Positions 6,798-61,149 of a stretch of DNA of 64,000 nt are shown here, one piece after another. This DNA is from Vicugna vicugna. Its lineage: Eukaryota. Position 1 is the stretch's first letter, and every line of letters starts with the position of its first letter. The stretch lies in NCBI GenBank assembly GCA_013265495.1, contig MU057651.1, positions 2,210,948-2,274,947 of the forward strand. Reading direction: 5' to 3'. Position numbers and translations under genes: made by a program. Below the pieces are notes generated by a model, which was not told the origin of the DNA, made no database searches, and saw only the letters and a list, made by a program, of their open reading frames with translations.

Positions 6798-6874
6798 CTT
6801 AGCTAGTCTTTTGGAAGATTCACAATTATGGCCTGTACATGGCTTGGGTCCTTTGTCAGTGTCTACAGAGGAAA
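6798..6874 (-). CDS. ZPBP: ZPBP exon 6 ([26 protein letters not shown])
   Basis: 77 nt, tcag|TTTCC...AAG|gtatg, phase 1-0; matches recalled human [26 protein letters not shown]. Exons 7-8 not found in 1-6700. Confidence 0.93.
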
Positions 6875-9556: not shown

Positions 9557-9775
9557 CTGAAAACGTGAAGAACAGCTCATTTTGCAGACCAGCTCTTTGC
9601 ATCTTAACGCGATGGCACTCAGACTTCAGCAGGGACACTTCACAGGAAAGTTCAAGAACCAATTTGCTTAAAAGCTGAAGCAGTTTCTTCTCAAAAGAAA
9701 TGTTATAAATACTATTGCAGGGGGCCGCGTGGTACCGGGCCGTGAACTGGTAGTAGCTATGGGGCTCCCGGTAAG
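9557..9775 (-). CDS. ZPBP: ZPBP exon 5 ([34 protein letters not shown]...[23 protein letters not shown])
   Basis: 219 nt, tcag|CTTAC...TCAG|gtaac, phase 1-1; highly conserved Sp38-family sequence. Confidence 0.96.
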
Positions 9776-13861: not shown

Positions 13862-14011
13862 CGTAGATGACGTACTTCAGCGGCAGCTTTCTGACCACCG
13901 CCTCCACAGTCGGCTTGTACTGCAGGAAACACGTGTACACGCCGCTCATGCTCTCCTCGAAGTCCTGGAACACCAGGCTCCCCGTGGATGTGATCTGCGT
14001 GGTGCTGTTCT
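13862..14011 (-). CDS. ZPBP: ZPBP exon 4, second half of Ig-like domain ([50 protein letters not shown])
   Basis: 150 nt, ctag|AGAAC...TACG|gtgag, phase 1-1; Ig SGxYTC motif. Confidence 0.96.
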
Positions 14012-20290: not shown

Positions 20291-20416
20291 CTGAAACAAT
20301 TTTCCCCTTCGGCCCGTGCCACTGGAACGACGGGTCCACCAGCTCGGAATTCCGGAGTTGCTGCGTGACACACAACACGTGCGGGCTCTTCCGATGGAGC
20401 GGGACGTACACCTTCA
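20291..20416 (-). CDS. ZPBP: ZPBP exon 3, first half of Ig-like domain ([42 protein letters not shown])
   Basis: 126 nt, gcag|TGAAG...TCAG|gtagg, phase 1-1; near identical to recalled human ZPBP. Confidence 0.96.
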
Positions 20417-25535: not shown

Positions 25536-25616
25536 CTGGAAAAGTTGGTGATCCCACTATTTTCACTGAATCCTGGGTATAGCGGAAACCTCTTGGTAAT
25601 CGAAGCAAATTTCCAA
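25536..25616 (-). CDS. ZPBP: ZPBP exon 2 ([27 protein letters not shown])
   Basis: 81 nt, atag|TTGGA...CCAG|gtatt, phase 1-1; matches recalled human [27 protein letters not shown]. Confidence 0.93.
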
Positions 25617-29077: not shown

Positions 29078-29412
29078 AATCTAAAAAAAAAAAAAAAAAA
29101 AAAAAAGACAAAGGAACTTATTTACAAAACAGAAACACTCACAGACACAGAGAACACTCGGTTACCGGGGAGAAAGGAGGTGGGAAGGGATAAATTGGGA
29201 GTTTCAGATTCGCAGATATTAATAAATATGAAATAGAGAAACAAGTTTATACTGTAAAGCACAGGGAACTATATTCAGTATTTTGAAACCTATGGTGAAG
29301 AATATGAGAACGGATGCATGTATGTCTCTATGTGACTGAAACGTGGTGCTGGGCACCAGAAACTGACACAACATTGTAAACTGACTATACTTCAATAAAC
29401 ATATGTTAAAAA
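29078..29412 (+). mobile_element. Lineage-specific L1 3' end
   Basis: GAACTTATTTACAAAACAGAAAC...GTAAACTGACTATACTTCAATAAA. Confidence 0.85.
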
Positions 29413-29829
29413 ATATTATTAACATAATAATAATGACACAAGTGGACTGATTATCATTTTGCTTTCTTGAATATGTGTAAGCACATCCGACTGTCCTTTA
29501 TAATTGGATTACCGCATTGCTCTTATTTTGCGGTTGGCTTTATTCCTTTGATAACTAGGTAAGTTTAAAAAGCTATACATGTATTTTGTTCTTAGAAACA
29601 ATAATTAAGACATATATGAAAACTAAAGAAAGCGCAGTATACTCTATATTTACATGCAGTATAATGTGTATGTGCAGTAGAACTGTAATAATTACAGCTA
29701 ATAAAACTGAAAAGGGGGAAATAAAGTAGTGAAAAGGAAAAATTTAAGTTAAAAAAGAAAAAGTAGTGAAAAAAATACAGTAGTGAAAAAAATAAAGTAG
29801 TGGAAAAGAAAAAACCAGTAGCAACAAAA

Positions 29830-30800
29830 CGGGCAGCGTCTGGAAGCCCCGCCCCCTGCACTTCCCGGCCAGCCCGGCAGGGGGAGCCCCCGGCCGCGGG
29901 AACCCAGGCCGCCGCGGGAAGTGCGCCCGTTTTGAAACGCAGGGGCCGTCGTGCGGGGCGGGCCGGCGGGGCGCTCACCTCACGGCTCGGCTCGACGAGA
30001 GCGGGGAGCCCGCGGCCCGGGCCCGCCGCCAGCCCCGCCGCGCCCGGCCGGGAGCCGAGGCCGCCATCCTCAGCCGCCGCCTGCCCACCGTCAGCGCAGA
30101 AGGTCGTTAGGCGGCGCGCGCCCACCGCCCGCCGGAAGTCGGCGCGGAGGGCCGGAAGTCGGCGGGCGAGGGCGGAAGGCCAGGGGCCCGCCCACTTCCG
30201 CCCGGCCGGGGGCGGGGCAGTGCGGCCGGAAGAGAGGCGCGCGCCCCGGGCCCCCGCCGCCGCCCGGGGACGCCTGGGGCGCACGGGCGCCGGGGAGCGG
30301 GTTCTGCAGCCGGAGAAGAGGGCTCGGCCCTCGGAGGGCCCGCGCGTCGCGGGGCGGGGCGGGCGTGTGGAGCCCGCGCGCGGGGCCGAGCTGGGGAGGC
30401 CCGGCGCCCGGAGACGCGCTCCGCCCGGAGGGTCGCCCGGCCCCGCGCGCGCGGGTAGGCGGAGCGGCTCGGGGAGGAGCAGCCCGCCTGTGTGCGGCTG
30501 GGAGAGTTCACGGCGTGTGGACGCTGCACGCCCGGTGCTCAGGGCCCGGCCGAGGACGCTGCGCCCTGCCGCCTTCGGGAGGAAGGAGCGGGCGGCCCGG
30601 GTGCGCTGGTCCCGGGCGGGCGGGCGGCCTCCAGCCGGCGGGCCCCCGCCTGCGTGCGCCCGGGTGTCGGGGAGTCGGCGCCGCTGGGAGCGTGCGGGCC
30701 CCGCCCCGGAGGGCGTCGCCCGTGCTGCCCTGGTGGACGCGCTGCGCGCCCGGTCCGCCCGCCCAGCGGGGGCCCGGGCCGCTTCGCCACCGTTGTAACC
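29830..30800. promoter_or_regulatory. CpG island / ZPBP promoter with clustered ETS(GABP)-type motifs and GC boxes
   Basis: Very GC- and CpG-rich; CCGGAAGT at 30132 and 30152, ACTTCCG at 30194, CCGGAAG at 30226; several GGGGCGGGG boxes; contains ZPBP exon 1. Confidence 0.88.
29979..30067 (-). CDS. ZPBP: ZPBP exon 1 coding part (MAASAPGRARRGWRRARAAGSPLSSSRAV); appears truncated/frameshifted
   Basis: ATG in good Kozak context (AGGATGG) inside the CpG island; resembles the recalled human N-terminus [24 protein letters not shown]; donor GAG|GTGAGC. Its 89 nt end in phase 2, but exon 2 needs phase 1. Confidence 0.8.
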
Positions 30801-30854
30801 TCAGCCTCGTAGGGTGGCTTCTGGCAGACTGCAGGCATTCGGATGGTCAGATTT

Positions 30855-31375
30855 AAAAAAGGAAGGGAAAGGGGCGGGGGAGGAAGGAGACAAAGAAAAG
30901 GAAAAAAGGGAAGGAAGAGGAAGGAAGGAAAAAGGGGAAGGGAAGAGAGAAAGAAAAGGAAAAAAGGGAAGGGAGGAGACAAAAGGAAAAAAGGGAAAGG
31001 AAGAGGAAGGAAGGAAAAAAGGGAAGGGAAGAGAGAAAGAAAAGGAAAAAAGGGAAAGGAAGAGAACGGAAGGAAAAAGGGGAAGGGAAGAGAGAAAGAA
31101 AAGGAAAAAAGGGAAGGGAGGAGACAAGGAAAAAAGGGAAAGGAAGAGAGATGAAGGAAAAAAGGGAGGGGAAGAGAGAAGGAAAAAAGGGAAGGGAAGA
31201 GAAGGAAAAGGAAGGGAAGAGAGAAGAAAAAAGGGAAGGAAAGAGAGAAAGGAATAAAGGGAAGGAAAGAGAAAGAAAAGGAAAAAGGGAAGAAAGAAAA
31301 GAAAGAGAAAGAAGGGGGAAGGGAAGAGACACAAAGAAAGAGGGAAAAAAGGGAAGGGAAGAGAGAAGGAAAGGG
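30855..31375 (+). repeat. Polypurine (GA-rich) low-complexity tract with internal repeats
   Basis: ~520 bp almost entirely A/G; the block GGGAAGAGAGAAAGAAAAGGAAAAAAGGGAA recurs. Confidence 0.95.
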
Positions 31376-49219: not shown

Positions 49220-49494
49220 AAATGAATGGATGGATGGATGGATGGATAGATGGTTGGATGGATAGATAAATAGATAGGATGGATGGATGGATGGTTAGAT
49301 AGATAAATAGATTGGATGAATGGATGGATAGATGGATAGATAAATGGATGGATGGATGGACAGATAGGATGGATGGATGGATAGATAGATAAATAGGATG
49401 GATGGATGGTTAGATAGATAGATAGATTGGATGAATGGATGGATAGATGGATAGATAAATGGATGGATGGATGGACAGATAGGATGGATGGATG

Positions 49495-49528
<34 letters not shown>

Positions 49529-52492: not shown

Positions 52493-52759
<267 letters not shown>

Positions 52760-60819: not shown

Positions 60820-61149
<330 letters not shown>

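Follow-up and report, generated by a model that had tools for sequence, protein, structure and literature searches.

A break in ZPBP exon 1 of a South American camelid assembly is most likely a mis-join in a GC-rich island

Intact ZPBP is already known from camelids, and false losses of sequence at GC-rich first exons are known as well. The alpaca protein model XP_072811582.1 (P0131) and a single model common to camels (P0122, which is at once XP_032332172.1, XP_064338436.1 and XP_074214741.1) each have a full 42-residue exon 1 product, with a hydrophobic segment after residue 24 that we take to be the signal peptide. As far as the available parts of two studies go (PMC9516821, and PMC7980453 on canine gaps at transcription starts), the sequence that assemblies lack is found above all in promoters and first exons rich in GC. 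The locus described here is like those losses in that it affects a first coding exon in a CpG island, that the missing sequence is present in independent data and that the rest of the gene is intact. It is unlike them in that no Ns separate the two sides of the join, and the result is a convincing false exon end. Furthermore, whereas those studies could check reads of the same individuals or libraries, the runs used here are not known to come from the source animal.

Described defects of ZPBP itself form the other point of comparison. In the available parts of PMC6993856, a man homozygous for ZPBP p.Gln311* is reported with globozoospermia, and Zpbp1 knockout mice are cited there with the same phenotype. 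The lesion in the present sequence, if real, would likewise be a recessive, male-limited null of ZPBP, but unlike p.Gln311* it is so far without a supporting animal, read or phenotype. The portions at hand of the alpaca and camel literature on ZPBP (PMC6598621, PMC12631973 and PMC7381958) do not describe a deletion of exon 1, a question on which subscription papers and supplements may also bear.

The window, by which we mean the whole 64-kb stretch of DNA that was analysed, carries ZPBP on its minus strand with the ATG at 30067 (Table 1). When exon 5 was used as a protein query, 183 of 206 candidate proteins were returned, and among the matches listed (at least 120) camel ZPBP1 stood at the top and accounted for the best four, at 97% identity; the alpaca model P0131 belongs to the same protein cluster. 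Exons 2-6 have AG/GT ends throughout, each start in phase 1 and give 217 codons without a stop, in agreement with the sequence-only reading, a first interpretation made from the letters of this DNA, which had called these exons intact and had assigned phase 1 to the exon 2 acceptor at 25616. Their product (residues 44-260) is identical to P0131 at 216 of 217 residues and to P0122 at 209 of 217, with 8 differences. The matches of exons 3 and 4 to PF07354 exceed the curated cut-off, and the Sp38 N-terminal Ig domain is therefore present; the frame of exon 5 gave no match in a Pfam scan. Residues 261-350 were sought within the 64-kb window and were not found, so that the last ZPBP exons lie beyond position 1. 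In ZPBP1 these last exons hold the C-terminal cysteine-rich part (PF20626). The single difference from the alpaca model is N128D, where the window has Asp and both the alpaca and camel models have Asn. Asp is also found at this residue in P0117 (bat) and P0150, and the substitution is thus probably tolerated.

On the plus strand, two frames matched PF15073 (SPATA48), at about 52649-52759 and 61039-61149, in a scan of 129 of the 133 frames that left out 4 frames inside the CpG island. These two SPATA48 exons are arranged head to head with ZPBP; the first exon of SPATA48 was not found. The presence of SPATA48 beside ZPBP fits the neighbour order listed in the available part of PMC6598621. That paper assigns ZPBP to alpaca chromosome 36. 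The gene had been named ZPBP from its letters, and the Sp38 domain matches, the near identity to alpaca ZPBP1 and the adjoining SPATA48 bear out that name. We conclude that this is a normal ZPBP gene (ZPBP1/sp38) and, from the 1 residue difference to the alpaca model as compared to 8 to the camel model, that the window comes from a South American camelid.

Table 1. Coordinates of ZPBP features and of the surrounding CpG island in the window.
Feature	Position	Strand	Details
CpG island around ZPBP start	29830..30840	.	GC 0.82, CpG observed/expected 0.97
ZPBP exon 1, kept part, coding nt 1-72 (codons 1-24)	29996..30067	-	Translation equals residues 1-24 of P0131 and P0122
5-nt filler at join, in place of 164 nt	29991..29995	-	X4 contig; loose ends of X1 and X15
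Intron 1 sequence brought beside exon 1 by join	29973..29990	-	Holds donor-like GTGAGG (29983) and GTGAGC (29978)
ZPBP exon 2	25536..25616	-	81 nt, phase 1-1; 27/27 residues equal P0131
ZPBP exon 3	20291..20416	-	126 nt; Sp38 Ig domain, Pfam PF07354 E 7e-17
ZPBP exon 4	13862..14011	-	150 nt; Sp38 Ig domain, PF07354 E 2e-14; has N128D
ZPBP exon 5	9557..9775	-	219 nt
ZPBP exon 6	6798..6874	-	77 nt

The break lies in exon 1. Residues 1-24 are identical to those of the alpaca and camel models, but unlike P0131 the window is without the codons for residues 25-42 and without the exon 1 donor. From the ATG to GAG|GTGAGC at 29978 there are 89 nt (phase 2), to GCC|GTGAGG at 29983 there are 84 nt (phase 0), and reading through leads to a TGA after 30 codons, whereas the exon 2 acceptor needs phase 1. 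These letters are just as they had been described. The absence of a hydrophobic segment, also remarked from the letters, was confirmed as well: no hydrophobic N-terminal segment is found in the window's 30 exon 1 codons, whose best 11-residue Kyte-Doolittle mean is 0.17 as compared to 2.71 in the alpaca and camel models. The window contains no N letters.

Neither another donor nor exon skipping rescues the frame. The GT sites at 71, 84 and 89 nt are in phases 2, 0 and 2 and their frames meet stops after 148, 45 and 154 codons, and the first GT in phase 1 lies 289 nt from the ATG, beyond the stop. Skipping is ruled out, since exons 2-6 all start in phase 1. With the 89-nt site as donor, no stop is met in exons 2, 3 or 4 and the frame ends 17 nt into exon 5, a long open frame that is probably the result of chance.

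Sequencing runs were searched with 29200-30850, which gave 24 runs; the stretch, or a part of it, was in 20 of these, and the contigs of four runs (X1, X4, X14 and X15) were aligned to 29830-30840, a span that ends short of exon 2. X1 and X4 are DNA of organism A from separate studies, X14 is from organism C, and X15 is recorded as RNA. In X4, a single contig of 1,452 nt with a depth of 20.5 spans the site and contributes 164 letters, against 5 in the window (29991-29995). At all 1,006 other positions, 161 nt from 29830 to 29990 and 845 nt from 29996 to 30840, this contig equals the window. X1 has two contigs, one per flank, with 1 difference from the window. They continue for 74 nt (from 29996) and 77 nt (from 29990) into sequence absent from the window, leaving 13 nt uncovered if the stretch is 164 long. 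Similarly, contigs of X15 continue for 28 nt (from 29996) and 19 nt (from 29990) into the missing stretch. By hand translation, the 30 letters of X1 past 29996 encode PAAVVLLLSA, residues 25-34 of P0131, in frame, and the 28 letters of X15 past 29996 encode residues 25-33 with one synonymous change. The first 10 and 9 residues of the hydrophobic segment missing from the window are therefore present, in frame, in X1 and X15, respectively, and P0131 has the segment as a whole. X14 has no contig on the site; its single record, a match under 90% at 30417-30450, belongs elsewhere, so that this run counts for neither side.

Together, the missing sequence is present in all three covering runs of the four that were aligned, as well as in the alpaca model P0131. 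The window's join is in none of the three (X1, X4 and X15), a count that comprises only two close-matching animals, that comes from contigs, which drop rare variants, and in which the source animal is not known to be included. The kept part of exon 1 is covered by X1 and X4 with no differences, and in X1, X4 and X15 letters other than exon 1 codon 24 precede the sequence of 29973-29990.

Apart from the missing stretch, X15 differs from the window at 14 letters over about 390 nt, which suggests that it comes from a more distant camelid. Since this more diverged run also has the missing stretch, the stretch is old. X15 also covers intron 1 and thus may hold unspliced RNA or DNA, so it is no sign of expression. 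One of its contigs (contig 6) repeats the letters of the hydrophobic segment at its upstream end, at 30230, which is probably a template-switch or graph chimera. The same contig has 10 extra letters of a CCG repeat at 30072, just upstream of the ATG.

The X4 contig gives a net loss of 159 nt, 164 letters against 5. We infer that 55 of the 164 nt belong to exon 1, including the hydrophobic segment, and 109 to intron 1, with the true donor between them, a split that is arithmetic from the 42-codon exon 1 of P0131. The real exon 1 would then have 127 coding nt, of which the window retains 72, and would end in phase 1, encode the hydrophobic segment and splice to 25616. The window's 89-nt "exon 1" is a composite, in which 29979-29990 would be intron from 110-121 nt beyond the true donor and the GTGAGC at 29978 an intronic site 121 nt past it. 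The sequence-only reading had taken this GTGAGC for the exon 1 donor and, by subtracting 89 from 127, had arrived at about 38 nt missing inside the exon. The comparison with X4 replaces that figure with 159 nt net, the real donor included, and the GTGAGC would no longer serve as the exon end. It follows as well that the TGA seen right before this site in the phase-1 frame would be intron sequence and not a mutated codon, given that 29979-29990 is intron. Of the checks proposed at that time, a search for the missing nucleotides found the stretch in contigs of other runs, with a size of 164 nt and not about 38, and a comparison with other camelids found a full exon 1 in alpaca P0131 and camel P0122.

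Other mammals suggest why the false site was convincing. P0152-P0155 are exon 1 of other mammals read into the intron, and in these P-P-S is directly followed by G-E. They indicate only that the donor directly follows the P-P-S codons, as a G|GTGAG donor would give G-E. Because the true donor in other mammals would be of the G|GTGAG type, the false GTGAGC site looked right. The join itself has a 3-nt microhomology, with CCG starting both the lost stretch and the right flank. In 4 of its 5 letters the filler agrees with the 5 nt that follow it; 75 of 956 local 5-mers are as alike by chance, and the likeness of the filler to its neighbours is not significant.

Protein models provided a further view of exon 1. 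In 153 proteins, 90 of which were usable, we looked for a hydrophobic segment, counted as an 11-residue hydropathy mean of 1.6 or more among the 22 residues directly ahead of exon 2. By this criterion the segment precedes exon 2 in 85 of the 90 proteins with a recognisable exon 2 start (isoforms counted, rows not independent); the five without it are P0004, P0073, P0087, P0099 and P0124. Several older camel models are defective at exon 1. XP_031300824.1 is garbled across it, A0A9W3GPI5 begins part-way through it, and EPY85502.1, KAB1253724.1 and KAB1253725.1 are without it. Two protein searches with the alpaca N-terminus (34 and 2 matches, cluster representatives) returned no further South American camelid protein. 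Most of these matches had their sequences compared, and among these cluster representatives none was seen with the residues specific to the window's junction. Additionally, according to a ZPBP1 row in the supplement of PMC12631973, 6 out of 9 sperm samples from alpaca have between 3 and 7 peptide matches.

The surroundings of the join are extreme in composition. The 100 nt on either side are 86% and 79% GC, so that they rank within the most GC-rich 0.5% and 1.3% of all 100-nt segments in the 64 kb. Within the island, at 30131-30170 (+), two tandem 20-nt copies lie 60-100 nt upstream of the ZPBP ATG, each with CCGGAAGT, which we take to be an ETS/GABP-type motif. Motifs of this type are common in bidirectional promoters. 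A purine-rich tandem array of 490 nt (30882-31371) lies directly beside the CpG island, and a block of ATGG/ATAG microsatellite is found at 49222-49528.

Based on these results, we conclude that the exon 1 break is most likely not a real feature, and we assign a probability of roughly 0.8 to an assembly mis-join in the 82% GC island. In such a mis-join, a very GC-rich stretch of 164 nt that spans the boundary between exon 1 and intron 1 would have been lost from the assembly, and the two sides would have been joined by 5 stray letters with no N gap. Coverage or contig continuity may have failed in the stretch, after which a short false overlap, or a molecule that skipped the stretch, may have bridged the gap. 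The lesion is in extremely GC-rich 5' sequence, as expected of false gene loss. The contigs of X1 end inside the stretch, and thus a second animal's short-read assembly fails at this place too. A mis-join is favoured by the window's join being in none of the covering runs while X4 bridges the site with 164 letters, by the failure of older camel models at exon 1 where P0122 and P0131 are whole, and by the lack of a second lesion in exons 2-6 together with ZPBP1 peptides in alpaca sperm. An assembly error in GC-rich DNA, one of the options offered by the sequence-only reading, is therefore the best supported of them. Counting against a mis-join are the clean flanks, with no differences from X4 and 1 from X1, and the lack of both Ns and any cluster of small errors that would point to poor consensus. 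The microhomology and filler fit end joining in vivo as well as they fit a skipped molecule or a false overlap.

It is unlikely, though well short of negligible, that the sequenced animal has a real, rare deletion-insertion allele (164 nt to 5), in which case it would probably be heterozygous or female, and we consider it slightly less likely still that such an allele segregates in South American camelids as a recessive ZPBP null. The flanks are free of errors, and a join with microhomology plus filler is found in real end-joining deletions. Furthermore, seeing the allele in 0 of 4 chromosomes still gives a 95% upper bound of 0.53 on its frequency, and carriers can be fertile, as were two heterozygous brothers of the ZPBP nonsense homozygote according to the available text of PMC6993856. 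These points are set against a join that none of the three covering runs has, and against junction-specific residues that were not seen among the N-terminal matches (most sequences compared, cluster representatives). Also against such an allele, the break falls in a stretch in which short-read contigs from another animal end and older camel models fail. An allele of this kind, if true, would be easily missed by short-read mapping, since it sits in an island of 82% GC.

If real, the allele would be null, as the true donor is gone. Use of GTGAGC would shift the frame to a stop at nt 463 inside exon 5, and nonsense-mediated decay is predicted, as is expected by the established rule for a stop so reached. 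Use of GTGAGG would lead to a stop after 45 codons. The first in-frame downstream Met is residue 133, and a protein started there would lack the hydrophobic segment as well as most of the Ig domain.

A fixed loss or remodelling of exon 1 in the window's species, with an alternative first exon or a small additional exon to compensate, is very improbable, and so is a true loss of the gene in the lineage. X4 shows no difference from the window over 1,006 nt and yet carries the stretch intact. Just 1 of 217 residues of exons 2-6 departs from the alpaca model, and 85 of 90 proteins (isoforms counted) have a hydrophobic segment ahead of exon 2. In favour of a fixed change, the window is placed no more finely than among the South American camelids, and of the three organisms (A, B and C) among the DNA runs with the stretch, the covering DNA runs are of A, with no cover from C. 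The dromedary models P0124 and P0125 do have alternative first exons, which correspond to sites in intron 1 of the window at about 26756 and 27744 (-). At both sites the window has ACG at the models' start Met and no hydrophobic segment is encoded, and the P0124 site (about 26756) is presumably inside an antisense LINE-1 remnant. The earlier suggestion that an alternative or extra exon might restore the frame is thus not sustained, skipping being useless as well. A lineage-specific loss would be common to all individuals and accompanied by further decay and an absence of protein; the join is in 0 of 3 covering runs, exons 2-6 are open, and sperm peptides are reported in the part of PMC12631973 at hand. 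Globozoospermia in knockout mice, as cited in the available parts of PMC6993856, also argues against a fixed change.

If the break is an artefact, as we conclude is most likely, it matters only as a warning. There is no N at the join and a convincing donor-like site follows 17 nt downstream, so the truncated exon has the appearance of a clean biological loss. The extent of the loss was underestimated four-fold (38 as compared to 159 nt), and mapping reads to the window would produce an insertion in ZPBP exon 1 that is false. A real allele would instead be a candidate recessive defect of male fertility in a farmed animal, in a gene with precedents in human and mouse. Homozygous males would be expected to have round-headed, acrosome-defective sperm, and a single PCR would then provide a test for one cause of male subfertility.
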